The translations under genes and the position numbers were made by a program. Shown piece by piece: positions 20,193 through 46,474 of a stretch of 64,000 bases of DNA; positions within the stretch are counted from its first letter, which is position 1; each line of letters starts with the position of its first letter. The stretch covers positions 82,026,001 to 82,090,000 of the forward strand of contig CM097886.1 of assembly GCA_044892525.1 (NCBI GenBank), given 5' to 3'. The DNA is from Schmidtea polychroa (lineage: Eukaryota). The notes beneath the pieces are model-generated. The model worked only from the letters and a program-made list of their open reading frames with translations, was not told the origin of the DNA and did no database searches.

Positions 20193-20263
20193 CTGTAGAA
20201 TATTTTTTAAAAGTGGTCTATAACGAACCAAAGTTTACCTGTAGAATATTTTTTAAAAGTGGT
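20193..20263. repeat. 25-bp direct repeat pair in the putative U3 (period 46 bp)
   Basis: CTGTAGAATATTTTTTAAAAGTGGT at 20193-20217 and 20239-20263; also present in the other LTR. Confidence 0.9.
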
Positions 20264-21042
20264 AATCTACAGATATTTTCCGTTCCTTATATATTATTTT
20301 TCGTCCAATCAGGACACGACTTGTTTGTATTTTTACTATTTATTATTATTTTTATGTTTTTTATTATAATATATTAGATTTTAATGACTTAACTTATTTC
20401 TTATTATTATTTTATTTATTTTCTTATTTTTATTATTTTCCTCCTATTTTTCCTGTGGATTTATTGCTACTTTATTGTAATATAATTTTTTGTTTTAATT
20501 AGACTTAAAGATAGTTTTATTTTTATTTATTTCTTAAATTTCTCGTTTATTTGTTGTCACTTTTTTACTTATTCTATTCTATTTCATCTGCTGGGTCCTA
20601 AATCGCTTTATTTCTAAATCTTAAGGGGTTTATTGGGTTTTATTTAGTTTGTTTTACTTATTCTTATTCTCTTATTGATATTTTATTGTTCCTTTTTGAT
20701 TTATTAGTGAGAATTTGATGGTACTTTATATTTTTATTTTATTTCGTTTATTTTTCAAGGATTACTTTTCTCTTCGCTCCAGTTTTCGAAACTCCGCGTT
20801 TTAGCCCAACAAATCACTCCGGGGCCCGTTAAAATTGCGCCCCGCAATTCACATAATATCATATTTTTAAATCATACCTTCTTTTGGCATAACAACTAAT
20901 TTCACGGTCAACATTCACACAAACATAAAATTAAAATAACTAAATAATACTTTAATTAAACAGATAAAAGGACAAATATAAGCAAGCAGTGGCCACTTTA
21001 GGTGACCGGATTTATACACACAAAGTTTATGAATGGTCGATG

Positions 21043-21678: not shown

Positions 21679-21733
21679 ACTACTATACGAAAATTTTTAT
21701 TTACAATTATTTACATTGATCATTCATTTTTAA

Positions 21734-23868: not shown

Positions 23869-25258
23869 CTACTCAGTCCTACTCTTCCCGTCTCGTCTCA
23901 CCGCTATTTTTATGTATATAGTGTCGTTTCTCGTCATGTCTTCTACTTTCCGCTGTAGGATGAAATTTGGTGCTCCAGTTGCTGGTCCTTCTTCTTCCAA
24001 GGGCCTTTGGTAACATACGAGGTTTCCCGCTGTATGGAAACTCTGTTCATGAATACTTTGATGGTTCATCATTGCGAGGTCTATTTTTGCTTTGAATGGC
24101 CATTCTATTAACTCGTCGTATGGCCCTTTGCACATCAAGAAGAATACTGAGAAATGCGTTCCGTATGCACTTCCATCCCCATTGGGGTATGTTTTCATTT
24201 TCATTTTATACCCGTTTTTCCATGAGTAGAATGCTGGACTTAGTAATGTTGTATCCTTTTCCATTTCTCGCTCTCTGCATCTTCTCTTTTACTCCCGTTA
24301 TTTTCCATATGTATGGAGCCGTGGGTATTAATTCGTTGAGGTTTAATTCGCTTACTTTTTGATGTAGTTCTTTCACCATAATGTTGCTAGTTTCTACTAG
24401 ATTTGTCTGTATCTTTGTACTTGTTCTCGCCTCTTCAAATGCTTCCTTTTCTTCCAATAGTTCTTTTACCAACGTTTTTAGCGAGACTATTTCTCTTTCT
24501 AAGTTTTCGGTTTTCCTTTCGTTTTCTTGTAATACCGTTGACCATATTTCCGCGTGTGTTGATACGTTTTCTGCTAGATGTTGGGGTAATTCCCCTCGGT
24601 GTAATTGTTTCTGACATCCCCATTTTCCTAACACACACCTTATCTTTTTCCTTTCACACTCTTTTAGATGTTGAGCGAGTTTTATTACTCCGGGTTTATC
24701 GCATTTATTGGGACATTCTCCTCTGAATTCTGCGCACACTTTCTCCTCTTGTATGTTGTGATGTTGCCTGATTAGTTTTTTCCAGGTGTCGGTTTCTCCG
24801 CAATACTCACATTTCTCCAGTCTTTCTTCGCATCGACTTTGATGTTCTGCTTCTTCATTGACTTTAATCTCTTCTTGGCAACGTTTGCATTGACTGATTT
24901 TATACTCACATTGCTCCATATGTTGCCTTACTTCCCATATCACTCCTCGCCAACTACATGGGGTGTTTTTACATCCTAGGTTTGCATTCAACATATCTTT
25001 TACAGCTGCTTTATCTTCGTTTGTATCTCCCAAACTTGTTATCATTGTTTCTTTGCATACTGGGCACCATTGTGGTCCCTTCTTTATTATCTCCTCTACA
25101 CATTCTCTGCACATTCTGCATCCACATCTGGTTTGGTGAGGTTCTCTTAATAAGCTCTTGCATATTCCACACGTTACATGGTTGTGTATTCGAATTGTGG
25201 TGGACTTTCTGACTTGTTCAACAATTTCTTTGAATTCTTCTCGTTGTCGCTTATCCAT
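23869..25258 (-). CDS. TRAF-family homologue (RING, TRAF zinc fingers, coiled coil, MATH) split by a 1-nt frameshift near 24257-24260
   Basis: RING CGICKSLLREPHQTRCGCRMCRECV..CPVCK; CPNKC and GC..HL..H zinc fingers; MATH motifs YIWKI in one frame and LSPAFYS..GYKM..YPNGDG..GTHFSVF..GPYDELIEWPF..YIKI in the next. Removing one A gives a 462-aa TRAF with no introns. Confidence 0.92.
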
Positions 25259-25263
25259 TTCTA

Positions 25264-25298
<35 letters not shown>

Positions 25299-25359
25299 GT
25301 TACTGGTACAGTTTCGTATTTTTATTTACAGTTATTTACATTGCTATTTTAGGTTATAT

Positions 25360-25887: not shown

Positions 25888-26890
25888 CTATATACGTGAG
25901 CTTGGAGGGCGCTGAGCATTCCAGGCCTCCACCCACTGTTCCTGCTTGATATTACTTGGTCGTTTTACATGATGTTGAAAATTTCTTATTCTGGCCATTT
26001 CTAGTTCTCCGCGATGCCGTCTATCTTTGATTATTTTTATTGTCCCCCCCGTTATGATTAAAAAGGCCCCTGTTATTATTATGCCGCTGATCCACATCAT
26101 CTGTTTTACGCTTATAATTTCCGCTTTTTCCTTGCTCGTTAGTGTTGATATTGCTTCTGTGCTTTTTAGATTACCATCTTTGCCATTTCCTTTCATCATT
26201 TCTCGTATTCTTGCTATTTCCTCGTTCATACCTTCCTTTGCCATTTTTTGTATTTTCTCCATCTCCTCCTCGGATACATAATTGTCTTGATGTTTCTCAC
26301 TGTTTTTCTTGCGTTTTCCTTGCTCATCTTTTTCATCATTGATTTTTCTTTTCTTCCCTCTTTTCCCAGGGTATCGTCGACATTCTCTCGCTGTATCTTT
26401 TCTCCAGATGCATATTGTGTATTCTTTTGGAGGTTGTTGCTGTATTACATATTGTAGACAGTCTTCCCCCGGTCTTAATCTTGCAATGCAGACTTTGTGT
26501 TCTTTTCTTGGCTGGAGTTGCGTTATCACTACCTCACCTCCTTTTCCCAGATGTACCTCCTTCCCTTTGACTTTCGTTATTCTCTTTCCGTCTCGATTTC
26601 GATATGCTTCTTGTATTCTTACTTCCGTTATTGGTTCTGCATCTTCATTTTTTAACACTAGTCTCTGATAAGCTCTAGACATACATCTTCCTAATATACA
26701 CCTTTCTTTTAAATCCCATTCTTCTTTTAGATCCCATTGCTGCTCTTGTACTTGTTTTTTCTTTTCTTGTTTTAGTTCTTCCTCTTTGTTGTCCTTATTT
26801 TCCGTTTCTTTGGCTTCTTTTATCGTTCTCATTCCTCCCTGGGCTGTTATCATTTCCACCATTGTTAATACGAGTATCATTATCATCATA
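25888..26890 (-). CDS. Polyprotein C-terminal type-I membrane module
   Basis: Signal-like MMIMILVLTMVEMITAQ, Cys-containing ectodomain, TM MMWISGIIITGAFLIITGGTIKII, basic tail. Confidence 0.65.
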
Positions 26891-29800
26891 TTTGTCTCCA
26901 TTTCTTTGTTGGTAAAAAGTAGACATACCCTCTGTTTTCCATTATTCGTCTTTTCTTCTTGCTTTATTTGGTTTCTCGGGTTGTTTTCCTCTTTTTTCCT
27001 ACTCGCGTCGTTATTTTCTTGATTATTCTCCTCTGATTTCTCTTTCTCTTTATTCCCGTTTCGACTTTTTCCATTATTATCGTCGTCTTTATCGTCTTTA
27101 TCTCCCCCGCTATCGTTTAAAATGTCGTCCTCGACATTTATATCATTCAACAATCTGCGGTATGCCGTTAGCACCCTGTTTCTTGCTAATTTTGCTTCGA
27201 ATTCGAACTCCTTTCTGCCTGTTGCTACATGTCTCTTTCTATTCCATTCTTTCACTAATTCTCTTAATTGTATCCGACGATGTTTCCCGATTCGCTTTTG
27301 TTCGTTTAGATTCTGCGTGAATTTGAGATCTTCCCTGTTTAATACGATCATTATGATTTTCGGAGTTCCTCCTTTTGTTAGTGTATTTTTAACCATAGCA
27401 TTTTCTCCGTTTTCGTAGAACTCATTTATATTTATTGCATATTTATTGCTTTGTGGTATTCTCCATGTTAGCAATAACTTCATGGCTTCTAAGTTCATCC
27501 GTATCGTGTTCCATTGGAATTGTGACGTGTTTTTACAGATATTTTCTACCTCAGCTCTTATAGCATTTTTACAAATGAATCTAATCATTTCCAAGTTTGG
27601 TTGTATCGTTGCCCAATCCATGGTAGATTTTCCTTCGTTTGATATTTCGTCAAGTCTCGAACCTGATTGATGTAGTATATGTAAGGTTTTCGGGTGTATC
27701 TTTGTTATTGCTGCATACATCATTGCTGTTTCTCCTTGTTCATTTTTTGTATTAGATTTTTCTCCGAAGTCTCTAAGGATTCTTATGATGGTTATTGCTC
27801 TGTTTTCTTTTGCTGCTAAAATGGCTTGTTGTAATGGTGTTCTTGAGTCTTTTGTTGGTAAGGTGAATGCTAGTGGTATAAATGTTTTTATTTTTCCTAT
27901 GTCTAGATTTGTGGTCTGATCTCTTGCGTAGGTGTGTACTGTTTTGGTTATTTTTGCTAGTATCGCTTCATCTGATAGATCTTGCATTTCTTCAAAGAAT
28001 ACTTCTTTAGCCTTGCGTACTACTATCTCTTGGTCGGAGTTTATTGTCTTTGGTTTACTTGTTGTTGCTATATCGGTTATTGGTTGATCGACTTGTTCCT
28101 CAGACTCTCTTGCTTTTACTTTCTTTATTTTTATCTTTTTCTTGTTCGAACTGTTAATGCGTTCCTCCGCCGTTAGAACTTGAATAATACTTAGGTAGTT
28201 TTCTCGAATGTTATTCATAGTTTCCATCATATGTAAAACACTCACGGTGTCCCAAAATTTTACTTGTACTTTATCGGTAAATTGAGATATAGCTTTTTCG
28301 AAGTTGGTAATTCGTTTTCTGATTAGTTGTTCGTCTTTGTGATTTGAGAACTTTATGCCACGTTGTAGTAGTTGATTTGGAATTTCGAATAGGTGATGTC
28401 CTCTCATCGCTTCTCTCATCAAGGTGTTTTCCCCTTTGGTAAATGTTTCGTTTATATCTACCATATAATCGTTTTTTATCGGGTTCCTCCATGCAATTAG
28501 TATTCCAGTAATTGTTGTTAATTTCTCTTTGATTGCAGTTAATAGCCCGTCATACATGTTTCCTATCTCTCTATTATCCTCGTATGATATTAGATCTACT
28601 AAGATTATGAAGGCTTCCGTACTTTTCCCTTCGATTGCATGATGTAGTGCATTTTTCTGGCTGTGGTCTTGTGTGGTTATCTTTGACCCAGTTTCAAGTA
28701 ATGCGATGATAATATCTTTAGCTTTATCCCGATTGGCTGCAATCATTAGTGGAGTGTAACCTTGGTTGTTTTCTTGATCCGTCGAAATGTTACAATCGCG
28801 AAATGCTTCGATCGTTTCCAGTATTTGTTCATTATTCCCGACCTTTAAAAGTTTGTGCAACGGTGTATCTCCATAATGGTCTGTGATCGTGAATAATATA
28901 GGCCATTGACCTTTAACTACCCTGAGCAATGGGTGTGTTCTTTCTCGATTTGCATAGTTTTCTATCATTGTTAGCAGACCTCCCAATATCTCAAAATCTA
29001 ATCTGTCTTTTGCCCATCCAGGCATTTTAACTTTTACTTCCTTTATGATTTTCTCGGCTTCTGATGGTTGTAACCCTAATCGATTACCTGTTGGTTCGTT
29101 TATCTGCTGTAACATGTTTATTCTATACGTTTGTGATCTTGTCGTTAATGTACGTCCTTCTGGCTGACTGGTGGCGGTTTTCGGAATTGGCTTACATCGT
29201 GCAACATTTACGTATATTGGTCTTGTAAAAGGGTTGTTCACTAATCGTACTCTTACATTAGTTTCTCCGACGAATAGAATCTCATACGGACCTTTACCGT
29301 TTCGTTGTAATTTTTTGGTGGTTCCTGGAATTAATTCTGGTGTTTCGATCATCACCCAATCGCCTGTTTGAAACGTATGCTGTTTGACGTTTTTCTTTCT
29401 ATCATGTAGATCTTTGTAACTTTCTTGATAAAATTTTATATTCAATCCTGCAGTTTCCCAGATTTCCTGCATTCTTTCCTTGAACTTGGTTACATAATCG
29501 TCTATTTCCATGTATTGTGATATTGGTGGCTGATATTCTAAATCCATTGGCATATTGCATTCTCTGCCGTACATCAACTTAAACGGACTCATCTTTGTGG
29601 ACGCGTGAATCGACATTCTGTAAGCCATTAAACATAATTTTATATACTCGTCCCAGTCGCGTTGATGACGATCGACATAATTTGATAACATTTGAATCAG
29701 TGTTCCATTGAATCTTTCTGTCATACCATTAGTTTGTGGATGGTACGGTGATGTTCTTAATTTTGCGATCTTGAAGTAGTTGGTGACTTCGCTCATTATT

Positions 29801-32800
29801 TCGCTCATGAAATTTGTTCCTTGATCAGTTAATATCTGTTTTGGTGTTCCATATCGACAGCATATCTCCTCTACTAGTATTTTTGCGATTGTTTTTGCTT
29901 TCTGATCTGCCATAGCGAATGCTTCGGGGAATTTCGTCAAATAATCTGTGATTACCAATATATATATATTTCCTCTATCTGATTCTGGTAGTGGACCGAC
30001 TACGTCCATTGGTATCATTGTCATTGGTTCTGCTGGTACTGGCATTGGCTTTAATGGTGCTCTCCATTTTGTTCCCGTGTTTTTCCTGGTTGCGCAAGTT
30101 ATGCAATTTTTCACCCATTCCGTTACATCCTCGGTCAATGTAGGCCAAAAATACTTTTGTTTCATTCGTGCCAACGTCTTTTTAGATGACATATGTCCTC
30201 CGAGTCTTCCGTCATGGTATTGTGTTAGCAGCTCTTTACGTCTATTCTCGGGAATGCACATCAGTCTTTTCTCGCCATCCATTATCAACAACCAGTCTTT
30301 CTCGATAATATATCGATGTCGATGTTTATCCATATGCTCCTTCAGTTTTTGATCTTTCTCATATACCTCTGCTTTCCCTGTTTTCACATATTCAATGATT
30401 TGCTTCAACTCTGTATCCTCTTGTTGGTCTTTCCGTAATTGGCAAAAATCTAAATCTTCTGCTACCATCAGACATATTCGTTGCATTTCGTGGTCTACTA
30501 AATCTGGAAAGATAAATCTGGACATACAATCCGCATTGGCATTCGCTCTTCCCGCTTTGAATTTTATGAACGGTGAATATTCTTGTAACTGCATTGCCCA
30601 TCGCATCAATCTACTTGAAGCTTCTTTGTGTTGACCAAGCCATACTAATGGTTGATGATCCGTGGTGATACATATTTCGTGTCCCCATAACAAATATCGA
30701 AAATGTTTAATTGCTTGTATGATTGCTAACGCTTCTCTCTCGGTTACGGAATAGTTTTTCTCGTGCTTTTTAAACGTTCTGCTGTAGTATCCAATCACTC
30801 TTTCTTTTCCCTCTTCATCCAATTGTCCTAATATTGCTCCGGCTGCATATCCACTTGCATCTGTTGCTAATAAGAACGGTTTCTTGAAATCAGGATGTAC
30901 TAGTATTGGGGCTTCAATTAATTTATCTCGCAATGTCTCAAACGCTTTTTGTTGTTCTGCACCCCAAATAAATGAAATATCCTTTTTCACTAATTCCTGT
31001 ATTGGTTTCGCAATGCCTGCATAGTTTTTGATGAATTTTCGATAATATCCGCATAATCCGAGAAATTCTTGAACTTGGGTGACAGTTTTTGGTGCTGGAC
31101 ATGTTTTTATTTTTTCTATGTTTCTTGGATCTGGTTCTTTGCCTTTTGCTGACACTATGTGTCCTAAGAACGTAACTTTTTCTTTTGCCCAATCACATTT
31201 GGATGGTTTAAGTTTCAGTTTCCATTGTCGTAATCGAACGAACACGTTTCTGATATCTTCCAAATGTTGTTCGAATGTTGCTGAATATATTAATAAATCA
31301 TCAATATATACCATACACTGCTTGATCCCGTGTGTGACAAAATTCATACATCTCTGGAATGATGCTGGGGCATTGGTCAGTCCGAACGGCATTTTCCTGA
31401 ATTGGTATAGATCTCGGCCCAATGTGAATGCTGTTTTCTCTTTGTCTTCCTCTTTAACTTTGATCTGCCAATATCCGCTTTTTAGATCTAAAGATGTAAA
31501 ATATGCGGCCCCCTGCAGCATAAGTAACATCTCATTGATGTCTGGTAATGGGTATGTGTCTCTTTTTGTTACTGCATTTAATTTCCGATAATCGATACAG
31601 AATCTCTGAGTACCATCTTTTTTCTTCACCATGACTACTGGAAATTGCCATGGCGAACAACTTGGTTCGATCACTTGTGCATCTAGCATTTTTTGTACTT
31701 CGGCTTCGGCTATCTCTTTTTGCTTCTCTGCTAGTTTGTATGGACGTAGTGCGATTGGAGTTTCGTCTATTAATGGTATTGCGTGTAGTGTAACATCGCA
31801 TGCTCCCAAATCTAAATCCGAAATTGCGAATATATCTTTATATTCTATCAATAATTGTTGAAGTCTTTCCTTTTCTTCTCCCGTTAGCAAGGTGCTATCA
31901 ATTATCCATAATTCGTCAGCTTTCGTTGTTTCGTTGGTGATTTTTGGTAATTCGATGTCTATCATGGGTGTCAATCTACCCAATCTTTCATTTTCATATA
32001 TGATCTTATCTTCTTCCTCGAAATTTGTGATGTTAATTGGTATTTCCCCGTCTTCATTTATTGTTATTATTTCTCTTGCTAATGGTAATTCTCGTCGTTT
32101 TTCGAATGATTTGCTTGGCTCAAAAATGACTTCTCCTTCCATTCCTGTATCCACTTTTATTTGACATATCATCTGTGATTTTGCGGGTACAATTATTTTC
32201 TCCGGACATCTAATTATTGCGTTCATCTTGCATATTCTACCCATTTTGTCTTTTAGACACATTGTTGTTAAATCGATTACTACTTCCTTGAACAATTCCG
32301 GCATTAAATCCGTTCCGATTATACATGGTTCACTCAGTTTGGGTATCACCGCTAGATACGTTTCAATTTCGTTATCCTGATATCGTAACGTAGTCCACCA
32401 TCTTCCTACTACGTCTACGGTTTCTTTACTGCATGCAATAATATGGATAGTTGTTTGTTCGATATCTTTCCAACATTTACTGGGTATTTGGTTTATTGCT
32501 ATTGCTGATACATTTGCTCCGGTATCTATCATTGCACTTGTCTCTTTCCCGTTGATTTGGATCATGACTGTTACTGCCGCACCTCCTGGTGAACTCATCA
32601 CTGCTATTGTTCTTACGTCGTCCGCTTGGTCTACACTTTTCGTTCTTCGGGTCGGCATATAGTTCATATCTGGTTGACTTGGTAATTGTGGATACATATT
32701 TGGTGTCATGGTCAAAGCGGTTTGTTGTCCAACGATATCTGGTGGTATATAACTTCCGTTGGCTATCCAGGTATTTGTTTTTTCTTTTTCCCAATATGGT

Positions 32801-35800
32801 GCTGTTTCTATTGGCTTTTCATTCGGGTTTCTACTTGGATATGGGTATTTGTCATTCCCGTTGTCGTCATCATCACTATCGCTGCTGTTTGATCGATTCC
32901 TAAATCTGTCTAAGAATTTTGGTTTGTTCTTTTTCAGTTGCGTCCTTGTTGCTTCATCATACATTGTTTTCCGAAATCGTCTACCGACTTCCTCGTCGGT
33001 TCCTTTTATTTTTGTCAATATTTTGATCAATCGTTTTATTCTATGTATGTCCTTAGAATGACCGTGCAACACCATTGTTTTTGCCAAAAATGGTAGAAAA
33101 CCTACTATCAATTTCCAATTTACCTTCTTTTCTCTCTTATAGATATCAAAACACGCTAACATTTGAGTCAATATTACTCTAACAATCTGTATAATAAGAA
33201 TGATTCCCAATATTCCTGCCATCATTTGGCCGAACACTAGAAATCTTCCCCACATTGCTTTCATCATGTTTGACGTGGCTTGTTGAAAATGATCGGGTGA
33301 CAATAATAGTTCGTAATTGGGGCCTGACTGGAAATTCGTTCCCCCAGTTATGGTAACCATATTCGATAGAATGGATTCCCGTCTTGCTGGGAATAATACG
33401 TTTAATCGTGCCGTTTCTAAATCCTCGGGTGAGTACATACCGGCCTTTGACACATCAATTGGTTTGAAATCTTGTTCTGTTGCGAGTTCTATCAGTCCAA
33501 ACTTTTTAGGCTCTTGTACTTCGGTTTTTACTGGTAACATTATCCATTTCCCATCGGGTTTTTCATATAACGGTCCGTATGCATTTGAACAGTTAAAGGT
33601 GTTCGGATAAAATCCAATTGGGTTCATTATCCTAGTGACGGGTTGAACGAATCTGTTTCGCCCTTTGTAGCTAATTTCTAACTCGTTTGCACATTTCCCT
33701 GGTGGAATTGTGGGCTTTCTTGGCAGTCGCGCAAATGTCTTGGTACATGCATATGTATACATTACCTCTCCCACCATTCTACCAAAATGTCCATCCGGTA
33801 ACGGGAGTGATGGCATTGTGTTATCTGGGTGTGTTATTGCGATGGCTAATTTTGTTTTTAGTATCTCTTTATTCAATGAACAGTCATTTTGTATAAGATC
33901 GTAATACACTTTTTGCATTGTCGTTTGTCCTCGGTGAAATAAAAAGTCCATTTTGTTATTGGCGTACAGGTACAATTTTACGTCCTCTGTTGCTACCTTT
34001 CCCACTGCTCGGTCTATTACTTGCCTGGACATGTAGATACCTGCGTAGTTCGTTCGATATACTATACTGTCACATTTGGTGGTCTCTTTCTCTCTGATAA
34101 ATCTCATACCGATATCTGGGTCATCTGTAATTAATGCCGTTGGTGTTTTTTGGGTTGTGAGTCTCTTTTCTTTGGGGGATGGCGGAACTGGTTTCCCATT
34201 TCGCATCCTTACGTTTCCATTCTCTTCATCGTCATCCTCGTTTTCGTAAATTTCTCCTTTTACTTCATTGAATAGAGCACTTTTTAACAATTGGAGTCGG
34301 CATTTTTGGGTGTTAGCTTCATATATTATAGTCGAAATTCCCGTTCTACACACGTTTTCCGTAGCTCGGCATGCTGGGTTGGTTTTCATTTGATAGTTGT
34401 TTGCGTCGAATTGTGCTTCGTATTCCTTCAACTCCACTGTGTAGGACTCAATTACTACTACTCCTGATATCACCTCTCCTCTGATCGTATATGTGCCTCC
34501 GTTACATGATCCATCAGTTGATTTTACTCGTCCGGCGACATAGATACTTTCTGTCTTGATCATTCCGCTTTGTCCGTGTATTGTTACTCCATCCCTGATT
34601 CTCATCGCTCCGGTTCTAAAAAGCTCTTTACAGTCTTCCCGTTGTATAGGTACTATTTCTTTATCTAATCCAGGTAATATGAGGGTTGAATATGAGTATT
34701 GTCCACAGTAATATGCCAACACTTTCTTCGATACTACGCATTCTCTAGCTTGCGTTCTAATGAAATCTGATTCTTGGTATACGTGATAGGAGACTTTCTT
34801 CTTTACTATATCTAATTTATTCGGAGATGCCTGTCTACATTCCTCTATATCTCTCAGGGAGTATCTTTCTCCTATTATCGAATTGTCACAGTCGTAAATT
34901 GTAAATCCAGCTGCTCCACTGGTGCAGAGCATCCATATCATCATGGTCATCATTAGTGAATTAATCGACGCTTTTCTGCTGGCTGGGTCTTTCAATGGCA
35001 ATTCCCATTCCAGCTCGTTTAGCAATTTCTTCAACCGAATTTGCATTGATCTCTCTTGCTCGTTTTTTCGTGGCGCTTGTATGAGTCTTTTCCACCCACC
35101 GGCGCGGATAATATGTGGTTCGATTGTATTTTCAATGATTGTGACGGTCATTTCTACATGATTTGCGAATTGTTTGTTAGGTATTTTCCTTGCTGCTAAT
35201 CCCATCAAATTGTACATTAGATACGTTAATACTACTAAATGATGTTCGTCGTCGTTTGCGTTTAAAGTTAATTGTTCAATTACTCTTCTTGTCTCTTCCC
35301 AATCGGTTTTAGTGGTTTTGGTCTTCTCTTTGATTAATTTCGGAATTATTCCGGATATTGTATTCCATAGTTGTCTGGCGTCTACGCTTGCTACTTTTCG
35401 TTGCCATAACCGTCTCAATTGCGGGTTCGTTATTATTAGCATATCTTTTACTAGCTCTCGTATCCATTTTTCGCCTCTTTCGATAGTTGGCTGGGCCTCT
35501 TTTAGATCCCACACTATTTTATCCAGTTTCTCCAATCTGACTTGTCCTTGTTCTTGTTTCAACTGTTCTCTGGTTTTAAATTCCGGTTTTTCTCCTTGCT
35601 TCTTGGGTCTCCCTTTTGCCCGTTTCTCCATCATTGTTCCGGCTTCCCTGGTATTTTCATAATTCGGGTTTCTCTCGTTATCCGTTCTTGGCAATGAGCT
35701 ATCGTTGTTTCTCAGCCATTCGTTCCATTCGTCTATTATTTTGTCCGTTTGACCTTCTGGTGTTGCTTTCGTTGGTACTTTCTGTCGTTGGAATTGTTCG

Positions 35801-38800
35801 TCGGTTTCGGTTTCTGTTGTATTATCGATAATCCCCTTGATACTTAGCTTATTTGGCTGCTGATAGCTAGTTGACGGTTGGCTTGTTGTCCATATTTCGG
35901 CTCCTGTCGGCCATCTTACCAGAATTGGTGATCTTTCTCCAGCTCCTTCATCGCTGTCTTCCAATATAATTTCCTCGATTTCCTCGGTTTCATTCGATTT
36001 ACTCGTCACTTTGTTAGGGCTTGGTGTACTCAAGCTACCTTTCGTAGGTTTACCGGATTTGCTCTTCCTTTTAATCGGTTTTCCCAATGTTTCTGCCATT
36101 GTCAATACATTGATCTCCCCCAATCTCATGGGTGTTATTCCGACATCTGCATTATCATCCAACGATTTTCCGAATAGTTGTAGGTGAAATGGAGTTTCGT
36201 ATGCTAATTTCTTTTTTAACTCTCTGATCTTTGTTGTTGGATGTACTTCTGTATCCTCAATGCTTTTGTCGGGATACTTGACTCGGATACGATACCTTTC
36301 CTGGGTATCTTGTGCCCATTCTTGGTTTCTCCATTTCCTAATAATTTGTTCTAGCTGTTCTGGGTACCATTCGTTATATTGTCTGTATTCCTCAATCGCT
36401 TTCGCCATTTCTCTTAGATTGTGGATATTCTCTGATGTCTTTAGGATGATGTTAGCCAATGCTATTACTTGACGTTTTTGATTTTTTGCTCCCGTTGCTA
36501 AGATATCACCTAATTGTTTATATCTTTCCTTCTCTTCTCGTTCTCGAGCTTCCATCGCTTCTTCGCTGTCCATATCGGCATATTCGCGTTCTTTCTTTCT
36601 CATCGCATGAATATGTCTGGTTTCCGTTTCACTTTCCGATGTAACATCCGTTTCGCTTTCGTCGTCCGATGTCGATTCTATTTCGTCCTCTTCGTATTTT
36701 GGAGGTTCATCTTCCTCTTCTTCTGATTCGCTTTCTATCTCACCAATGTCTGTTTCCACGAAAATCCCTTTCCTGATTTCCCATTCTTTGTTTTCGGCAT
36801 TCCACATCCTTTCCCATGGGGTTCGTCTGCAGGATCTAACACTTAGTTTCTTTATTTTTCCTTGAAGCTCTTTTTCTTTTAGCCACTGTTGATGAATTTC
36901 AATTATCTCTACTGATTTTTGATATAGCGTTTTCATCCTGTCTCGTATTTCTTTCTGGTATGTTATATCTCTTGTTCGGAATTCGTCCATGGGCAATATT
37001 CTGATGATTTGATGATTATCCCACATTCCCATTTCGCTTAGCGAGGTGTCGTCTTCGGCCCGTAATATTATTTTATCGTACATCATGACTACATCATCTA
37101 TCATCCCGTCGCTACTCTCGCTTCGTACTTTTTCCGTTATCTCTTGGTTTATCTTGGTTACTAAGTCATCCACCGTACTCTGATTACTCATCTTTATTCG
37201 TCGTTTCTCCTCGTTTGGTAACCATATGGTTATTTCTAATTTCTGCGGTTGCGTTTCTTTTACTCTTCCGTATTTGTGGATCAAATTTATGGTTCTCCAA
37301 TCACTCATCCTGAGCAATTCTGTATCTCGTAATCGGCTCATTAGCTCATGCATGTCTGCAGTTCGTCTTGTTATGAGCAAATCCCAGTTATCCTCAACTT
37401 GTTCTTGGATTTGCTTGATTAATTTATCTAGATTTCGTCGCAAGGTGCATTGTTTTATTTGTTCCAGCTTCAGCTTGATGTTAAAGTCATACTCGGCCTT
37501 GGCGTCTTTAGCCCATTCGTGAATATTTGCTGGTTGCTTCTCTTTATACAATTTCAATATTTGAGTTTCTCCTGGCCAGATCAATGCATCTATTAGGTGC
37601 ATGTCTGGTTTGATTTGTTCTCCTTGATATTGATACAGGTATTCTTTCTTTCTCGAGCTGCCCAAATGTTCTCTTATCCAATCGAAAAGATCGTCTGTAA
37701 CTGCATTTTTTATCCATATTCTCTCGAGTCCTTTACTTGTTCCGATTTTTATTACATAACGTGTTGTCTCCGCTTGTTTCATTTTTTCCATATACTTCTT
37801 TATTATCGCTTTTTCCTCGTTTGGTATTAGATCTTTTTCGTTTCTTTCTAGTTTCATTATCTTTTGTATGAAGCGTCTGTATGGTATGATGTCAATGAAT
37901 TCCTGGTTTCTTACCACCACTGGAAGTATTTCCTTTACTTGTTTTATCGATTCTTCTCTTTCTTTTCTCAATTTCATTTCGATATTCTCGTCTTCGCTTT
38001 CACTTGTTACGTCGCTTTCACTCTCCTCTTCATCTGTTCCGATCTTCTCTCTTAGTTGGTTGATATTTTCATTTAACTGCAATATTTCTCCACCAAGGCT
38101 ACTCACATAATCCTCATCGTCATCTGTTGACAATACCTTCTTTGTCGTCCTCATCATATTAATTCGTAAATTTCTCATTCTTGGTACTTTCTTTAACTTT
38201 TTGTTCTCGAATAACGTTAGCTCCTCTGAGTTCGATTCTCGTATCATATCATGATTTAGATGATTAATCTGTTTTTCATTTTCGTTATTCTCTGCTTCTG
38301 CTTCTGTTTTTGTTTTCTCATTTTCTCTTTCGATTTTATCTTTTATCTTTTTCCAAAATATTTTCTGAATTCTCTGATTTCCTTTCAGCGGTGTTGTTGA
38401 ATTTTCCTTTTTTGCTGCTGTAATTGTTTCCTTCGGTTTCTCTGGTTCGCTCGTAGGTACAACTCTTGGATTTTTACCATAGTTGTAACAATATTGCTCC
38501 TTTATCTCCTTTACCATCCTCATCATATTTATTCGTAGTGGTTGTTCTTGTCGCTGTTGAATTCGCTCTCTTTTTATCCTCTCTTCTTCAGCTTGTAGTC
38601 TTTGCCATTCTTGTGCATGTTGTTGCACTTCATAATTGTTAAGATTCTCGGTGCTTCTCATCATGCGTATATTCTGGGTTTGTTGTGGTACTTGCTCTTG
38701 TCTCGGTCTCATCATTTGTTGCATCATCTGCTTCATTTGTGAAATTTCTTGCATCACATTCATTTGCTTTCCCTCACTAGGATTACTTTGTCGTTGCGGA

Positions 38801-40314
38801 TTTGGTGCATAGTTATTATTTCGCTGTGGTGGTCGTTGCTGTTGGCTCCTTTCTCGACAGTCTCTTGAGATATGACCTGGTTGACCGCAGTTAAAACATC
38901 CTCTCGATTGGCATATATTTTCCGTGTGTCCTCGTCGTCCACACCTATTGCAATTTGCGTTTCGGTAACAATCTCTATCCCAATGTCCTGGTTTACCGCA
39001 TGTTCGGCATTGTTTGTTATCGTTCATATTTCGTCGATTATTAAAGTTGTTTCCATTGTTCGAGTTGTTGCGTTCACTGTTATTCCCGTTTGATCGTCCT
39101 TGTGGTGGTTTGAAGATTTGATGTGCTCCTGGTATAAACTGATTCATCTTGGGTTCATGATTATTGTTATCCCCATTTTCCGTTTTCACCGTTGCTGTTG
39201 CGATTCTTCCCTCCTCTTGCATGACGTTCATTTGTGCTGGGAGGTGTAGTTCGCATCTTGTGGCCCAATCTATGGCTTCTTCTAGTGTTTTACACATTTG
39301 ACATCCCACCGAGGCCCTTACCTCTTCTCGGCGTAGTCCTTCTATGAAGTACCCAATTAAGTTTTCCTCCGGCAAGTTTCCGTTCATGGCCTTCTTTGCC
39401 AATCTTCGCAATTCACTTGCGTATAACGTAATTGACTCGTTTGCTCTTTGTTTTCTACTTGCCAGTTCACCTAACGCTTGATTTATCGGTTTGCTAGCTC
39501 CGAATGTTTTTCTCAAAAATGTTTTGATGTTTTCCCAATTGTCCAATTTCGTATTTCTTTCTTTTGCTTCTAGATACACTTCGAGTGCGCTATCGCACAA
39601 AAACAGAGGCATTCGTTTACTAATTACTTTGGACGTCCATCCACACACATCGATATAGACTTCAAAGTTGGTTATGAACGTTGCCAACTTGTTCGCATTC
39701 CCGTTGAACGGTTCGCCTCTAAATTTCTCTTTATATTCGTCGGTTTTTGCTACATTCATCTTGATTGGTTCTTGAAATGCTATTATTTCTTTTAAATTTT
39801 CTAGTGATGTAGCCAAACTATGGACGGATAATTCTTCTGTTGACCCGGTTAGGTTGTTTGTTATATCGGATAGACTTTCTCTACTTCTAGATCGACTGGG
39901 CGTATGTCCGGCTGTGGGGTTTTCTTGATCGTATATCGGTGTTTTGTGGGGTCTTTTTGCTCCTTGTGATATTCCTCTCTGCTGCCTAAATGATCGTCCT
40001 CTTTTGAGTTGATCTAATTCGTCTCCTGAAAATAATACGTCTCCTGGCTTACTTGAAGATCTAAGGTTGGGTTTATCCGTGATTTTCCTTTTACTCTTTT
40101 CTGTCTTTTCACGTGGATTTTCTACGGTTAGCGTCTGCTGAATTGGTCGAGTTTGGTTCTGATATTGTTTTCCTTTGTGCGGGTTCTGAATTGCTTTTCC
40201 TGGGTTGTTTGTATATTCTCTGGATTCCTCTTGAGCTGCTTCTGAATTGACTTGGTTGGATTGATGTCTACAATGAAAATATGATATCGTGTTGCCTTTG
40301 CTTACACGAATCAA
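25888..40314 (-). CDS. 4,808-codon Gag-UBL-Bcl2-Env-PR-RT-RH-IN-ANK-TM polyprotein
   Basis: Single stop-free frame of 14.4 kb; the first ATG is only at codon 186 (39759), so the true start is unresolved. Confidence 0.95.
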   Translation of the reverse strand: MIRVSKGNTISYFHCRHQSNQVNSEAAQEESREYTNNPGKAIQNPHKGKQYQNQTRPIQQTLTVENPREKTEKSKRKITDKPNLRSSSKPGDVLFSGDELDQLKRGRSFRQQRGISQGAKRPHKTPIYDQENPTAGHTPSRSRSRESLSDITNNLTGSTEELSVHSLATSLENLKEIIAFQEPIKMNVAKTDEYKEKFRGEPFNGNANKLATFITNFEVYIDVCGWTSKVISKRMPLFLCDSALEVYLEAKERNTKLDNWENIKTFLRKTFGASKPINQALGELASRKQRANESITLYASELRRLAKKAMNGNLPEENLIGYFIEGLRREEVRASVGCQMCKTLEEAIDWATRCELHLPAQMNVMQEEGRIATATVKTENGDNNNHEPKMNQFIPGAHQIFKPPQGRSNGNNSERNNSNNGNNFNNRRNMNDNKQCRTCGKPGHWDRDCYRNANCNRCGRRGHTENICQSRGCFNCGQPGHISRDCRERSQQQRPPQRNNNYAPNPQRQSNPSEGKQMNVMQEISQMKQMMQQMMRPRQEQVPQQTQNIRMMRSTENLNNYEVQQHAQEWQRLQAEEERIKRERIQQRQEQPLRINMMRMVKEIKEQYCYNYGKNPRVVPTSEPEKPKETITAAKKENSTTPLKGNQRIQKIFWKKIKDKIERENEKTKTEAEAENNENEKQINHLNHDMIRESNSEELTLFENKKLKKVPRMRNLRINMMRTTKKVLSTDDDEDYVSSLGGEILQLNENINQLREKIGTDEEESESDVTSESEDENIEMKLRKEREESIKQVKEILPVVVRNQEFIDIIPYRRFIQKIMKLERNEKDLIPNEEKAIIKKYMEKMKQAETTRYVIKIGTSKGLERIWIKNAVTDDLFDWIREHLGSSRKKEYLYQYQGEQIKPDMHLIDALIWPGETQILKLYKEKQPANIHEWAKDAKAEYDFNIKLKLEQIKQCTLRRNLDKLIKQIQEQVEDNWDLLITRRTADMHELMSRLRDTELLRMSDWRTINLIHKYGRVKETQPQKLEITIWLPNEEKRRIKMSNQSTVDDLVTKINQEITEKVRSESSDGMIDDVVMMYDKIILRAEDDTSLSEMGMWDNHQIIRILPMDEFRTRDITYQKEIRDRMKTLYQKSVEIIEIHQQWLKEKELQGKIKKLSVRSCRRTPWERMWNAENKEWEIRKGIFVETDIGEIESESEEEEDEPPKYEEDEIESTSDDESETDVTSESETETRHIHAMRKKEREYADMDSEEAMEAREREEKERYKQLGDILATGAKNQKRQVIALANIILKTSENIHNLREMAKAIEEYRQYNEWYPEQLEQIIRKWRNQEWAQDTQERYRIRVKYPDKSIEDTEVHPTTKIRELKKKLAYETPFHLQLFGKSLDDNADVGITPMRLGEINVLTMAETLGKPIKRKSKSGKPTKGSLSTPSPNKVTSKSNETEEIEEIILEDSDEGAGERSPILVRWPTGAEIWTTSQPSTSYQQPNKLSIKGIIDNTTETETDEQFQRQKVPTKATPEGQTDKIIDEWNEWLRNNDSSLPRTDNERNPNYENTREAGTMMEKRAKGRPKKQGEKPEFKTREQLKQEQGQVRLEKLDKIVWDLKEAQPTIERGEKWIRELVKDMLIITNPQLRRLWQRKVASVDARQLWNTISGIIPKLIKEKTKTTKTDWEETRRVIEQLTLNANDDEHHLVVLTYLMYNLMGLAARKIPNKQFANHVEMTVTIIENTIEPHIIRAGGWKRLIQAPRKNEQERSMQIRLKKLLNELEWELPLKDPASRKASINSLMMTMMIWMLCTSGAAGFTIYDCDNSIIGERYSLRDIEECRQASPNKLDIVKKKVSYHVYQESDFIRTQARECVVSKKVLAYYCGQYSYSTLILPGLDKEIVPIQREDCKELFRTGAMRIRDGVTIHGQSGMIKTESIYVAGRVKSTDGSCNGGTYTIRGEVISGVVVIESYTVELKEYEAQFDANNYQMKTNPACRATENVCRTGISTIIYEANTQKCRLQLLKSALFNEVKGEIYENEDDDEENGNVRMRNGKPVPPSPKEKRLTTQKTPTALITDDPDIGMRFIREKETTKCDSIVYRTNYAGIYMSRQVIDRAVGKVATEDVKLYLYANNKMDFLFHRGQTTMQKVYYDLIQNDCSLNKEILKTKLAIAITHPDNTMPSLPLPDGHFGRMVGEVMYTYACTKTFARLPRKPTIPPGKCANELEISYKGRNRFVQPVTRIMNPIGFYPNTFNCSNAYGPLYEKPDGKWIMLPVKTEVQEPKKFGLIELATEQDFKPIDVSKAGMYSPEDLETARLNVLFPARRESILSNMVTITGGTNFQSGPNYELLLSPDHFQQATSNMMKAMWGRFLVFGQMMAGILGIILIIQIVRVILTQMLACFDIYKREKKVNWKLIVGFLPFLAKTMVLHGHSKDIHRIKRLIKILTKIKGTDEEVGRRFRKTMYDEATRTQLKKNKPKFLDRFRNRSNSSDSDDDDNGNDKYPYPSRNPNEKPIETAPYWEKEKTNTWIANGSYIPPDIVGQQTALTMTPNMYPQLPSQPDMNYMPTRRTKSVDQADDVRTIAVMSSPGGAAVTVMIQINGKETSAMIDTGANVSAIAINQIPSKCWKDIEQTTIHIIACSKETVDVVGRWWTTLRYQDNEIETYLAVIPKLSEPCIIGTDLMPELFKEVVIDLTTMCLKDKMGRICKMNAIIRCPEKIIVPAKSQMICQIKVDTGMEGEVIFEPSKSFEKRRELPLAREIITINEDGEIPINITNFEEEDKIIYENERLGRLTPMIDIELPKITNETTKADELWIIDSTLLTGEEKERLQQLLIEYKDIFAISDLDLGACDVTLHAIPLIDETPIALRPYKLAEKQKEIAEAEVQKMLDAQVIEPSCSPWQFPVVMVKKKDGTQRFCIDYRKLNAVTKRDTYPLPDINEMLLMLQGAAYFTSLDLKSGYWQIKVKEEDKEKTAFTLGRDLYQFRKMPFGLTNAPASFQRCMNFVTHGIKQCMVYIDDLLIYSATFEQHLEDIRNVFVRLRQWKLKLKPSKCDWAKEKVTFLGHIVSAKGKEPDPRNIEKIKTCPAPKTVTQVQEFLGLCGYYRKFIKNYAGIAKPIQELVKKDISFIWGAEQQKAFETLRDKLIEAPILVHPDFKKPFLLATDASGYAAGAILGQLDEEGKERVIGYYSRTFKKHEKNYSVTEREALAIIQAIKHFRYLLWGHEICITTDHQPLVWLGQHKEASSRLMRWAMQLQEYSPFIKFKAGRANANADCMSRFIFPDLVDHEMQRICLMVAEDLDFCQLRKDQQEDTELKQIIEYVKTGKAEVYEKDQKLKEHMDKHRHRYIIEKDWLLIMDGEKRLMCIPENRRKELLTQYHDGRLGGHMSSKKTLARMKQKYFWPTLTEDVTEWVKNCITCATRKNTGTKWRAPLKPMPVPAEPMTMIPMDVVGPLPESDRGNIYILVITDYLTKFPEAFAMADQKAKTIAKILVEEICCRYGTPKQILTDQGTNFMSEIMSEVTNYFKIAKLRTSPYHPQTNGMTERFNGTLIQMLSNYVDRHQRDWDEYIKLCLMAYRMSIHASTKMSPFKLMYGRECNMPMDLEYQPPISQYMEIDDYVTKFKERMQEIWETAGLNIKFYQESYKDLHDRKKNVKQHTFQTGDWVMIETPELIPGTTKKLQRNGKGPYEILFVGETNVRVRLVNNPFTRPIYVNVARCKPIPKTATSQPEGRTLTTRSQTYRINMLQQINEPTGNRLGLQPSEAEKIIKEVKVKMPGWAKDRLDFEILGGLLTMIENYANRERTHPLLRVVKGQWPILFTITDHYGDTPLHKLLKVGNNEQILETIEAFRDCNISTDQENNQGYTPLMIAANRDKAKDIIIALLETGSKITTQDHSQKNALHHAIEGKSTEAFIILVDLISYEDNREIGNMYDGLLTAIKEKLTTITGILIAWRNPIKNDYMVDINETFTKGENTLMREAMRGHHLFEIPNQLLQRGIKFSNHKDEQLIRKRITNFEKAISQFTDKVQVKFWDTVSVLHMMETMNNIRENYLSIIQVLTAEERINSSNKKKIKIKKVKARESEEQVDQPITDIATTSKPKTINSDQEIVVRKAKEVFFEEMQDLSDEAILAKITKTVHTYARDQTTNLDIGKIKTFIPLAFTLPTKDSRTPLQQAILAAKENRAITIIRILRDFGEKSNTKNEQGETAMMYAAITKIHPKTLHILHQSGSRLDEISNEGKSTMDWATIQPNLEMIRFICKNAIRAEVENICKNTSQFQWNTIRMNLEAMKLLLTWRIPQSNKYAININEFYENGENAMVKNTLTKGGTPKIIMIVLNREDLKFTQNLNEQKRIGKHRRIQLRELVKEWNRKRHVATGRKEFEFEAKLARNRVLTAYRRLLNDINVEDDILNDSGGDKDDKDDDNNGKSRNGNKEKEKSEENNQENNDASRKKEENNPRNQIKQEEKTNNGKQRVCLLFTNKEMETNMMIMILVLTMVEMITAQGGMRTIKEAKETENKDNKEEELKQEKKKQVQEQQWDLKEEWDLKERCILGRCMSRAYQRLVLKNEDAEPITEVRIQEAYRNRDGKRITKVKGKEVHLGKGGEVVITQLQPRKEHKVCIARLRPGEDCLQYVIQQQPPKEYTICIWRKDTARECRRYPGKRGKKRKINDEKDEQGKRKKNSEKHQDNYVSEEEMEKIQKMAKEGMNEEIARIREMMKGNGKDGNLKSTEAISTLTSKEKAEIISVKQMMWISGIIITGAFLIITGGTIKIIKDRRHRGELEMARIRNFQHHVKRPSNIKQEQWVEAWNAQRPPSSRI
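27320..28900 (-). CDS. Polyprotein domain: two blocks of ankyrin repeats
   Basis: YGDTPLHKLL, QGYTPLMIAA, QKNALHHAI (28350-28900) and SRTPLQQAI, QGETAMMYAA, EGKSTMDWAT (27320-27860). Confidence 0.85.
29200..30240 (-). CDS. Polyprotein domain: integrase (HHCC, DDE core, GPY)
   Basis: YHDGRLGGH..KYFWP..CITC; MDVVGPLP; LTDQGTNF; YHPQTNGMTERFN; KGPYEI. Confidence 0.97.
30520..31800 (-). CDS. Polyprotein domain: reverse transcriptase and RNase H
   Basis: RFCIDYRKLN, LDLKSGYWQI, MPFGLTNAPASFQ, YIDD (31297-31308), FLGH; ATDAS, YSVTEREALAI, TDHQPL, NANADCMSR. Confidence 0.98.
32290..32580 (-). CDS. Polyprotein domain: aspartic protease
   Basis: AMIDTGANVSAI and C-terminal IIGTDL motif. Confidence 0.95.
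33070..34965 (-). CDS. Polyprotein domain: signal peptide plus chuvirus-like (class III) envelope glycoprotein
   Basis: SLMMTMMIWMLCTSGAAG|FTIYDC..YSL.DIEEC, YYCG, AGRV..DGSC.G, C.LNKEIL, GEVMYTYAC, ELEISY..FVQPVTRI, AGMYS.EDL..LFP, WGRFLVFG..GILGI TM: the Cys and motif order I recognise from chuvirus G proteins. Confidence 0.85.
35080..35470 (-). CDS. Polyprotein domain: Bcl-2-like helical domain
   Basis: IENTIEPHIIRAGGW resembles Bcl-xL BH2 LNDHLEPWIQENGGW; a hydrophobic BH1-position helix HLVVLTYLMYNL lies upstream but lacks NWGR. Confidence 0.7.
36100..37764 (-). CDS. Polyprotein domains: three ubiquitin-like folds
   Basis: 37550-37764, 36994-37242, 36100-36297; the third reads RIRVK..EVHPTTKIRELKKKL..LQLFGKSLDD vs ubiquitin EVEPSDTIENVKAKI..LIFAGKQLED. 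Confidence 0.65.
38857..39759 (-). CDS. Polyprotein domain: Gag capsid-like region and three CCHC zinc knuckles
   Basis: PFNG..FITNFE..GW, KQRANESITLYASELRRLA, FIEGL, TLEEAI; knuckles CRTCGKPGHWDRDC, CNRCGRRGHTENIC, CFNCGQPGHISRDC at 38857-39009. Confidence 0.95.
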
Positions 40315-42012: not shown

Positions 42013-42492
42013 CTAACTGAAGTAGATTGTGTGCTTCTCTTTTATTACACATGTGCACATAGAACAACGGATTAAACTGGCGGCGCATTCGTCACAATGG
42101 CTAAGGTGCCCACAAGGTAGAATCAGAATTTTGACAGGTCGCATCCTGCAAATGTTACAAGTTCTCAAGGCCGCTGCTTTCTCTACTATTGATGTTCGTA
42201 TCCGCTGAGACAGAGTTTTGACTTGTTCGCGTATCTTCACATATTCGATGTTCAGAGCGGGGTCGTCGAGACGTTGCTGAAACCATTGGTAATGAATAGA
42301 CAAGTCGGTATCGGTATTTGTTGATCCTAATCTGTCGGTTAGAAAGTTCTGTTTGGATATCAGCGGTGCGTTGTGGCTTTGTTGTTCTAGCAGTTCTATT
42401 TGTTTCAGTTTTTCCCTTAATGTTTTTATTGAATCATTTTCTATTTCGACGAACCGGCTTAGCTGTTGTAGATGTTGTCTAGCTTCTGACAT
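42013..42492 (-). CDS. 159-aa coiled coil plus IAP/Mdm2-type C-terminal RING protein, upstream of gag
   Basis: CNIC..ILILPCGHLSHCDECAASLIRCSMCTCVIKEKHTIYFS-stop; catttag|atATG; AATAAA ~140 nt downstream. Confidence 0.88.
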   Translation of the reverse strand: MSEARQHLQQLSRFVEIENDSIKTLREKLKQIELLEQQSHNAPLISKQNFLTDRLGSTNTDTDLSIHYQWFQQRLDDPALNIEYVKIREQVKTLSQRIRTSIVEKAAALRTCNICRMRPVKILILPCGHLSHCDECAASLIRCSMCTCVIKEKHTIYFS

Positions 42493-42931
42493 ATCTAAAT
42501 GAATGCGTTGTTATTATTTTGTTCCTACTGATATTAAAAATAATATTATTATGTTTGTATTTAATATTCGTTGGCTTTTATGCGTTAGTGTTTTAACTTT
42601 TGTATTTTATTCGATCTTTGAAATTCCCCTTTCATCTTTTTGCTTTAATCACTTACTTTCTTTCGTCCCCCCTTTTATTTTAACCCGTTAAAATTAATCC
42701 CAATAACCAATTCCCGTTTTCTTTTCTCATCATACTTCATCACATTCATTCCAACTCATTTAGGTTCGTTTCATTCACCACATGCTCTATTTCAAACTCA
42801 GACAGTTCGTATCATTTCATTGTACTATCATTCGTTTCAGCCCCGATTCCATTTTTATCATTATTAATTAAATTGTTAATCTAACACATCATAACACAAA
42901 ATTAGACAATCAAACAAATCAATATATATAT

Positions 42932-42949: not shown

Positions 42950-43495
42950 AAAATCATGTTGGCGTATGTGGAGAAGGAAAAAAGAATTATACATGCATTT
43001 CCATCACACCTATCAAGCATCATGGCTCCGTTATACATTTTCTACACATACTCCAAATGATTGATTGCATATTCCCACATATGAGCCCATGGTGATGTTC
43101 CATGTTGGTGCTGCTCATACGGGTCGGAAAAAGTTAGCAGGTGAGCCCCTGCCTTAGGACTACTCCTAACCCTTTCTCGGTTCGGGTCCACGGTGCCTTA
43201 GAAGGACTTACCCACATACATGCGTGTCACTCAGTCTGATCCTGGTCCAAAGGAACGACTTTCAACTTTAATTACCTTCATTCCGTAGCAGTATCTCATT
43301 TATCCTAATTGCACAAACAAATATATGAAAGCTCGACAAAACTGAAATCAAACAGAAAATTTTATTGACACTGAAACGATAAAACATCATACTACTAACA
43401 GATCAACAGCAGTCAAAAAGATATAACATTAGCAACATTCACAAGATAATTTACAACTCAATGAAGAGGAAAATCAAGCTCAATTGTCCGTCACG

Positions 43496-44256
43496 TTAAA
43501 CAAAGTTATCTCCATCGGCCAGTATCTCATCTATGTCGACCGGTAATCGACTATCCACAATGTACTTGATGCCCTCAGCTGGAACGATGCGGAAAACTTC
43601 CTTCAAGGGGATTGAATGGGAGGACGTTATCTCTTGGATTTTTGATTTCGCCGCTAATAAGGACGTCTCGAGTGCTGTCATCGCATCTCGGCGTTTTTGG
43701 TTCTTCTCGGCTCGAGTTGGCCGTTTCCGTTTGCGGGTAGTCGGGGGGTTTTCGGTGTCCGTGGTACCGATTTGTGCTACCAAGATTGGAGCTACGATGG
43801 GATCGGTAGATCCACCTGTCTTTGGCTGGTGACTGGACAATACCGGGGCTGGAATGGGCGGTAGTTGTGAGCCGTGCCCCTGGCAGTGCGAACTGGAAGA
43901 TGTAGAAGACTGGTGGTGCAGGGGAAAGACATTCATCCCATCCAGAACGGGAAATTCTCGCACCCGCTTAGCCAATTCTACCTCCGTATATACCTTATGG
44001 AGGGCTTCTGATTGCGCTTTGATGGTGAGCCGCTGGCAACGGCTTTCCTCTAGCAGGCTGTCCCTGCAATGCTCTAATCGGAGAATTTTCTTGGTTCCTC
44101 TTTCATTTGTGGCGGGGAGAACCACGTTCCTTCATAGAGATCAATTCTCTTTTTGAGAGCCCCGATATATAAATGCAGTTGGGTGATATCCGCGTTCTTG
44201 TCCGCACAAGAAAAACACGGGCGGAGTTCTTTGGCGTTGTTGGACGATGTAGCCAT
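43496..44256 (-). pseudogene. Frameshifted copy of the LTR-encoded ORF
   Basis: ttgcgttcc (17731-) is ttggttcc (44091-) here, splitting the ORF into 60-aa and 209-aa pieces. Confidence 0.85.
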
Positions 44257-46396: not shown

Positions 46397-46474
46397 CTTG
46401 AGTTTCGAAAACTGAAGTTAAATCGGTTGAATTTAAAATTTTCCTGAATGGATTTGTAGTTTGGCCTCTATATA
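46397..46474 (-). promoter_or_regulatory. Candidate element promoter, leader exon and splice donor (5' LTR)
   Basis: TATATAG 46474-68, TCA(+1 at 46445)G, AAG|GTATGC at 46397/96. Confidence 0.55.

Follow-up and report, generated by a model that had tools for sequence, protein, structure and literature searches.

The polyprotein of a young Gypsy-type LTR element in the genome of Schmidtea polychroa contains, directly ahead of its env, a domain that is homologous to Bcl-2 by profile comparison, almost certainly adopts the Bcl-2 fold according to structure prediction, and differs from human Bcl-2 at all four positions known to be needed for Bax binding. The element lies within the stretch of 64,000 nt that was analysed (64 kb; hereafter the window). 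We propose that the env signal retains this diverged and likely captured domain at the cytosolic side of the ER, where it likely dampens host-cell death through a remodelled, non-canonical groove, a reading to which, taken as a whole, we give even chances. That Bcl-2-like cargo occupies this position in Burro elements is already known: section 7 of PMC6431247, which cites Jurka 2007 and Grohme et al. 2018 for Burro and GYPSM1, the planarian giant Gypsy-like elements, describes Burro elements as having a BCL2-like motif immediately ahead of env. Thus, the novelty implied in the earlier note on this DNA was anticipated, and with the domain and its position already in print, the present result is mostly confirmation. 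The same section contains no fold test, groove analysis or anchor idea for the Burro motif; what is added here is support for the fold and the observation that the four Bax-binding residues of human Bcl-2 all differ. In the literature searched, we found no paper on a shared anchor or an altered groove; Grohme et al. 2018 and Lee et al. 2026 (Dev Cell) may cover fold or function.

The element spans positions 16597-47170 of the window (30,574 nt), and its two 4.2-kb LTRs are 99.93% identical over 4,215 nt. The following features, all on the minus strand, define its layout:

42957..47170, minus strand: 5' LTR, with TG..CA ends and a 4-bp target duplication (GTTT); a primer-binding-site-like sequence follows it
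42013..42510, minus strand: accessory RING-finger ORF (Pfam zf-C3HC4_3, E 5e-8)
25888..40314, minus strand: polyprotein ORF of 4,808 aa, with Gag, ubiquitin-like regions, Bcl-2-like domain, Env, PR, RT, RNase H, IN and ankyrin repeats
23869..25321, minus strand: TRAF-like accessory gene with RING, zinc finger and MATH; this copy has it in two overlapping frames
16597..20811, minus strand: 3' LTR, paired with the 5' LTR and with TG..CA ends

Pfam families follow each other along the polyprotein in the order Gag, zinc knuckles, Monjiviricetes-type fusion glycoprotein, protease, RT, RNase H, integrase and ankyrin repeats. The Gypsy order PR-RT-RH-IN, a length of ~30 kb and long LTRs, as well as an env placed in frame between gag and pol and directly behind the BCL2-like motif, are characteristic of Burro-type elements; judged by these sequence features, the element is a Gypsy-type LTR element with Burro architecture. 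Its likeness to Burro1-4 and GYPSM1, which is one of described architecture and not of reference sequence, includes a length of more than 30 kb, a polyprotein near 4,800 aa (4,873 quoted for Burro), a Gag with three CCHC knuckles, a Ubi/SUMO-like region, the BCL2-like motif, an in-frame env between BCL2 and PR, ankyrin repeats and MATH/TRAF cargo (PMC6431247). Weak matches to ubiquitin-like, UBX and Ras-binding families (E 0.004-0.08) upstream of the Bcl-2 domain (36115-36312 and ~36900-37800, minus strand) fit the Ubi/SUMO-like region named for Burro. In contrast to Burro and GYPSM1, the TRAF-like gene here forms an ORF of its own downstream of the polyprotein, and a six-frame scan of the element, which a spliced BIR might escape, revealed no BIR pattern; a RING ORF is present, whereas the B-IAP of Burro1 consists of BIR plus RING. 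The element family is young and abundant, all 150 scored genome matches (of 953 candidates) being 93-100% identical over the Bcl-2-like domain.

Several other features were recorded in the element and around it. In most of the 150 scored copies, the MATH domain lies in an open frame of ~479 aa, in contrast to the split TRAF-like gene of the window copy. Four accessory ORFs, mostly coiled-coil-like, are located between the polyprotein and the 3' LTR (21043-23654 and 25360-25746, minus strand), and each LTR contains one ORF (17136-17897 and 43496-44131, minus strand); no confident Pfam family was found for those of the accessory and LTR ORFs that were scanned. The 5' leader of the element carries a 79-nt tandem repeat array (40984-41457). 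With its signal-like segment at aa 4476-4494, a region that contains Cys and a transmembrane helix at aa 4744-4762, the C-terminal module of the polyprotein (26029-26889, minus strand; no Pfam family match) looks like a second type I membrane protein. Copy pairs ~26.4 kb apart (G000:C1:72655113 and 72681506; G000:C2:107339233 and 107365645) are spaced as tandem elements with a common LTR would be. Outside the element, the window contains a host-type gene fragment matching C2orf69 (57179-57892, minus strand; E 7e-30).

The domain itself was delineated as follows:

35068..35481, minus strand: Bcl-2-fold domain core, aa 1612-1749, by profile and structure matches
35215..35286, minus strand: degenerate BH1 region, with DDEH (35242-35253) where NWGR is expected, the register being taken from profiles
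35092..35136, minus strand: BH2 region IENTIEPHIIRAGGW, aa 1727-1741, with His at the position of Bcl-2 W188

The longer motif DDEHHLVVL reads from 35253 to 35227 on the minus strand (aa 1688-1696 of the 4,808-aa ORF). The earlier note had located both this motif and IENTIEPHIIRAGGW in the polyprotein upstream of env, which is where we found them, and had assigned the domain to 35080..35470, nearly the same span as that of the structural match (model residues 24-161, corresponding to 35068-35481).

Taken alone, the window sequence scores weakly against Pfam PF00452 (13.6-16 bits with a cut-off of 31.4; E 0.018-0.099), and a single-sequence phmmer search against the PDB returned no Bcl-2 protein and one unrelated match (E 1.5). 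Three word-seeded homolog searches found nothing, and the ESM Atlas gave no usable match. A low Pfam score and the lack of a PDB sequence match would fit a chance likeness, in which a GGW motif happens to lie in a generic helical region, and so would the single-sequence AlphaFold model (pLDDT 49.7), for which Foldseek gave only designed helical repeats and which we discarded as uninformative. The relatives of the element, however, point elsewhere. Genome searches with the Bcl-2 and env families yielded three more lineages (L061/L064; L097/L102; L104/L137/L139), ~14-21% identical to the window domain, and an element profile was assembled from 23 sequences at <95% identity, out of 52 distinct segments, aligned without any cellular protein. 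Searched against the PDB, this profile retrieved Bcl-2 or Bcl-xL in all 60 of the matches listed (133 at E<=10; best E 5.5e-4), and in hhalign it matched 7 non-Burro Bcl-2-like genes of the same genome with a probability of 95.6 (E 1.3e-8, 64 columns). Pfam Bcl-2 was matched by 21 of the 23 profile members at E<=0.1, and the sister lineages reach 28-31 bits on it at the same position. In the converse comparison, a profile of the 7 non-Burro genes gave the region 13.8 bits, the top score among all 160-aa windows of the polyprotein and one that none of 1,948 scored shuffles (2,000 made) reached, the shuffle maximum being 11.2. Homology to the Bcl-2 superfamily over BH1-BH2 is thus settled by the profile of the relatives, the single sequence being weak and under the Pfam cut-off, and on these profile comparisons the domain is homologous to Bcl-2. 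Given the shuffle test, the profile matches, the scores of the sister lineages and the Foldseek and VIA comparisons described below, the chance reading appears largely refuted, and we regard its probability as negligible.

An AlphaFold2 model computed with the 23-sequence alignment was of moderate confidence (pLDDT 62.2, pTM 0.61). In a Foldseek comparison of the kind that the earlier note had suggested, all 34 PDB rows listed belonged to the Bcl-2 family and not to an unrelated fold (best E 7e-3, none at E<=0.001). The top viral rows were Bcl-2-type proteins of herpesvirus, asfarvirus, iridovirus, poxvirus and adenovirus (best E 0.067), with unrelated rows mixed in lower. VIA, which re-ranks Foldseek's own matches, aligned the model to KsBcl-2 with a Z of 12.8 and an rmsd of 2.3 over 125 aligned residues, although helical bundles can often give Z values below ~13; its 50 rows were all Bcl-2 family. 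Identity between the domain and its structural matches is 8-16%. The case for a Bcl-2 fold rests on the agreement of the structure matches with the sequence profile, and in view of this agreement we consider the predicted fold almost certain.

To place the domain among proteins from elsewhere, a HMMER search of 1.84 billion representatives was used, which gave 13 matches at E<=0.001 (P0002-P0014). In five of these (P0002, P0005, P0006, P0007 and P0010), the domain is accompanied by a hydrophobic segment and the start of an env, as judged by eye for P0002; P0012 is Gag plus a Bcl-2-like domain, P0003, P0009 and P0014 are short fragments, and P0004, P0011 and P0013 look like cellular Bcl-2 proteins. 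The remaining match, P0008, a repeat protein that lacks BH2, is likely false. In a tree of 10 element and 7 non-Burro sequences (81 columns), the element rows fall on one side of a branch with support of 86/89, among long branches. By this comparison, there may have been a single origin. The element likely captured its domain from a cellular gene.

Multicopy Bcl-2-like genes with a hydrophobic tail of their own were also encountered in this genome (L046-L060; L085:746-6163; L088:849-9233; L090:4965-9509). These genes adjoin a protein-primed type DNA polymerase, an integrase, an A32-like ATPase and a small TBP gene and, by gene content, sit in Maverick/Polinton-like elements; one type of them has an intron-like insert before BH2. 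Together with the Burro-type carriers, two unrelated mobile classes in this genome thus bear Bcl-2 cargo.

Over 157 codons, the domain differs from that of one subfamily-B copy by 76 synonymous and 14 non-synonymous changes; the amino acid identity of the two is 94%, a pattern similar to that of PR and CA. Between L061 and L064, dN/dS is 0.11 in the domain and 0.36 in the linker behind it. By these substitution counts, the domain is under purifying selection, and it is very likely functional. In the window lineage, purifying selection covers the whole polyprotein, linkers included, and therefore does not single out the Bcl-2 domain.

With the cellular Bcl-2 family (Bcl-xL, Bcl-2, Bfl-1/A1, Bak), the element domain shares the helical fold, the BH1-BH2 spacing and the GGW of BH2. 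However, it has DDEH for NWGR and His for the first Trp of BH2, it is embedded in a polyprotein, and its C-terminal hydrophobic segment is the signal sequence of another protein. The earlier reading that the NWGR of BH1 has been replaced is supported, since DDEH is in register with NWGR in the profile columns; IENTIEPHIIRAGGW, taken there as a close parallel of BH2, keeps GGW and the BH1-BH2 spacing of the family. The same columns are occupied by RWSR, CWSK, NWVK and NMGR in cellular-type proteins. Across the 23 in-genome sequences, GGW is invariant (23/23), the Trp position of BH1 is taken by K, R, D or E, the Gly position by D or E without exception (23/23), and the Arg position by V, H or K, so that the Gly and Arg of the canonical motif are absent, as in the DDEH of the window. 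The first Trp of BH2 is retained in 18 of the 23 sequences and is His in the window lineage (3/23).

In human Bcl-2, the substitutions W144A, G145E, R146A and W188A each abolish Bax binding (literature table, PMC6825947), and the Gly and Arg of NWGR are described as key for BH3 contact (PMC9027176). The window residues corresponding to W144, G145, R146 and W188 are D, E, H and H. With all four Bax-binding positions replaced, ordinary BH3 capture by the element domain appears doubtful. This doubt is tempered by poxvirus Bcl-2 proteins that have no recognisable BH motifs and still bind BH3 proteins (PMC11209288), and by the varied Gly position outside this genome, where it is not always acidic (GR in P0009; S, N or T in others; the motif reads TKER in the cellular-type P0004).

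Replacement of the four positions would also be compatible with a fold repurposed for a non-apoptotic task. The domain could then be a signalling adaptor that acts together with the TRAF-like, RING and ubiquitin-like cargo, in the manner of the poxvirus Bcl-2-fold inhibitors of NF-kB, or it could connect Gag and env structurally at the ER. Repurposing is further favoured by the place next to the env signal, which is constant across lineages of ~20% identity, and by the presence of TRAF-like and RING genes in the same element. However, viral Bcl-2 proteins without BH motifs can still be anti-apoptotic (PMC11209288), and P0004, a cellular-type protein with a tail, has TKER at the NWGR site, so that loss of NWG need not imply a new job. 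We consider such repurposing rather improbable, and a pro-survival role of the predicted domain somewhat probable. The viral Bcl-2 proteins (KsBcl-2, BHRF1, A179L and the BH-motif-less poxvirus F1L and M11L) resemble the element domain as a captured fold in a mobile genome and were the best structural matches, whereas they differ in being free-standing genes of DNA viruses, with NWGR kept in KsBcl-2 (PMC9027176). By sequence, the domain is thus likened to a captured viral Bcl-2, yet lacks the NWGR of canonical pro-survival members.

The region between the domain and env, env itself and two candidate processing sites were annotated as follows:

36103..36114, minus strand: INVL, possible protease site (rank 23) that would set the N-terminus of the Bcl-2-containing piece
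35002..35061, minus strand: predicted amphipathic helix in the linker that joins BH2 to the signal segment, seen in the low-confidence model
34906..34977, minus strand: predicted internal signal sequence of env, from hydropathy (basic n-region, hydrophobic core, small-residue c-region)
34954..34965, minus strand: INSL, aa 1784, where the signal segment has its cytosolic edge; a possible site of the element protease (rank 38 of 4,799)
33169..34905, minus strand: Env ectodomain and transmembrane helix (aa 2364-2382), a Monjiviricetes-type fusion glycoprotein (Pfam PF24664, Monjiviricetes_fusion, E 5e-72)

The uncharged run ahead of env begins 40 aa after GGW and the hydrophobic core 46 aa after it, in keeping with the distance of ~40 aa previously given for the env signal. 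Small residues before the conserved YDC would place the cleavage point of the signal, and the env N-terminus, FTIYDC, is at aa 1804. In 4 of the 4 lineages examined, a GGW-ending Bcl-2-like domain lies 20-50 aa before a basic-then-hydrophobic segment, followed in frame by the env start, and the same order of domain, hydrophobic segment and env is found in the five outside proteins named above. Net charge ahead of the hydrophobic run was +2 to +4 in all 6 sequences tested. The window segment is weakly hydrophobic, with a best 17-aa Kyte-Doolittle mean of 1.4 versus 2.3-2.8 in other lineages, and the uncharged run is merely 12-14 aa in the L061/L064 lineage. The linker helix is 95% identical between subfamilies; by eye, it has BH3-like hydrophobic spacing without Gly-Asp, and it could fold back into the groove of its own domain.

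The window segment opens with several Met (MMTMM), as might be expected if env had a separate message, spliced or with an internal start at this Met cluster, the domain and the signal then not necessarily belonging to one chain. However, the L064/L073 subfamily has no Met before the hydrophobic run, which makes a separate message less likely, and the frame is continuous in all lineages examined; we regard this reading as very improbable. Contigs from four sequencing runs, in which none of the 15 joints listed (with 25 further joints beyond the listing) fell at the env signal, are neutral with respect to a spliced env message.

In one continuous polyprotein, cleavage by signal peptidase after an internal signal would leave that signal on the upstream piece in tail-anchor orientation. 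At the flavivirus capsid-prM junction, the internal signal of the glycoprotein is left in this manner on the upstream capsid and a second protease removes the anchor, the signal being cleared in a way comparable to that of HCV core. At the HCV core-E1 junction, the signal peptide of the glycoprotein likewise stays on the upstream cytosolic protein and is then cut off by SPP (PMC7601889). In both systems, the upstream protein is a capsid and its anchor is removed by a second protease, whereas in the element it is a predicted Bcl-2-fold domain. The idea of a shared anchor, raised in the earlier note, is consistent with the topology. The polyprotein would be threaded into the ER at the internal env signal and signal peptidase would free env. 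The signal would then remain, if only temporarily, as a C-terminal tether on the upstream piece, which may comprise aa ~1403-1803 should the element protease act at INVL. Such a signal-derived anchor would place the domain at the ER, not at mitochondria. The constant order across lineages and the positive net charge ahead of the segment speak for the tether, whereas the low hydropathy in the window, the short uncharged run in L061/L064 and the possible cut at INSL speak against a lasting one. The hydrophobic segment that could serve as a C-terminal anchor is present, weak and possibly cut off; we consider a transient ER tether likely and the prospects of a lasting one somewhat short of even.

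Alternatively, the Bcl-2-fold piece might be released in soluble form, through a protease cut at INSL or clearing by SPP, with the hydrophobic segment serving env only. A junction-type motif occurs 15 times in the polyprotein versus 6.2 expected, a number reached in 3 of 1,000 shuffles for a pattern chosen after inspection, and this recurring motif is probably the site of the element protease. One copy, INSL, starts the signal segment and is kept in subfamily B, and the second signal-like segment (aa 4476-4494) likewise has a junction motif 13 aa upstream. The weak hydrophobicity of the window segment and the freeing of HCV core by SPP (PMC7601889) also speak for soluble release. However, with a ranking matrix trained on six canonical junctions, INSL comes just 38th of 4,799 positions, and no match to the pattern was found at its place in L061, L064, L101 or L104. 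As for INVL, its first residue differs in subfamily B. On balance, we judge soluble release to be unlikely.

Under the tethered arrangement that we prefer, the Bcl-2-fold piece would engage host death or stress proteins from the ER. In its strongest form, this proposal holds that one hydrophobic segment is used twice: it inserts env and then persists as a tail anchor that keeps at the ER a Bcl-2-fold protein with a groove tuned away from BH3 binding; we see this full combination as rather unlikely, though plausible. If it is true, a module for cell survival or signalling would be installed where particles assemble each time that envelope protein is made, and the constant order of Bcl-2, signal and env in lineages that are ~20% identical would reflect the coupling imposed by the double use. 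For Burro1, an anti-apoptotic role that protects stem cells is reported for a different cargo, B-IAP (cited in PMC13465017). In the literature searched, the Bcl-2-like cargo of Burro elements is merely named, whereas the IAP cargo of Burro1 is reported to protect planarian stem cells. The Bcl-2-like cargo may give these elements a second means of keeping the stem cells of the host alive, or it may represent the Bcl-2 fold in a new use.
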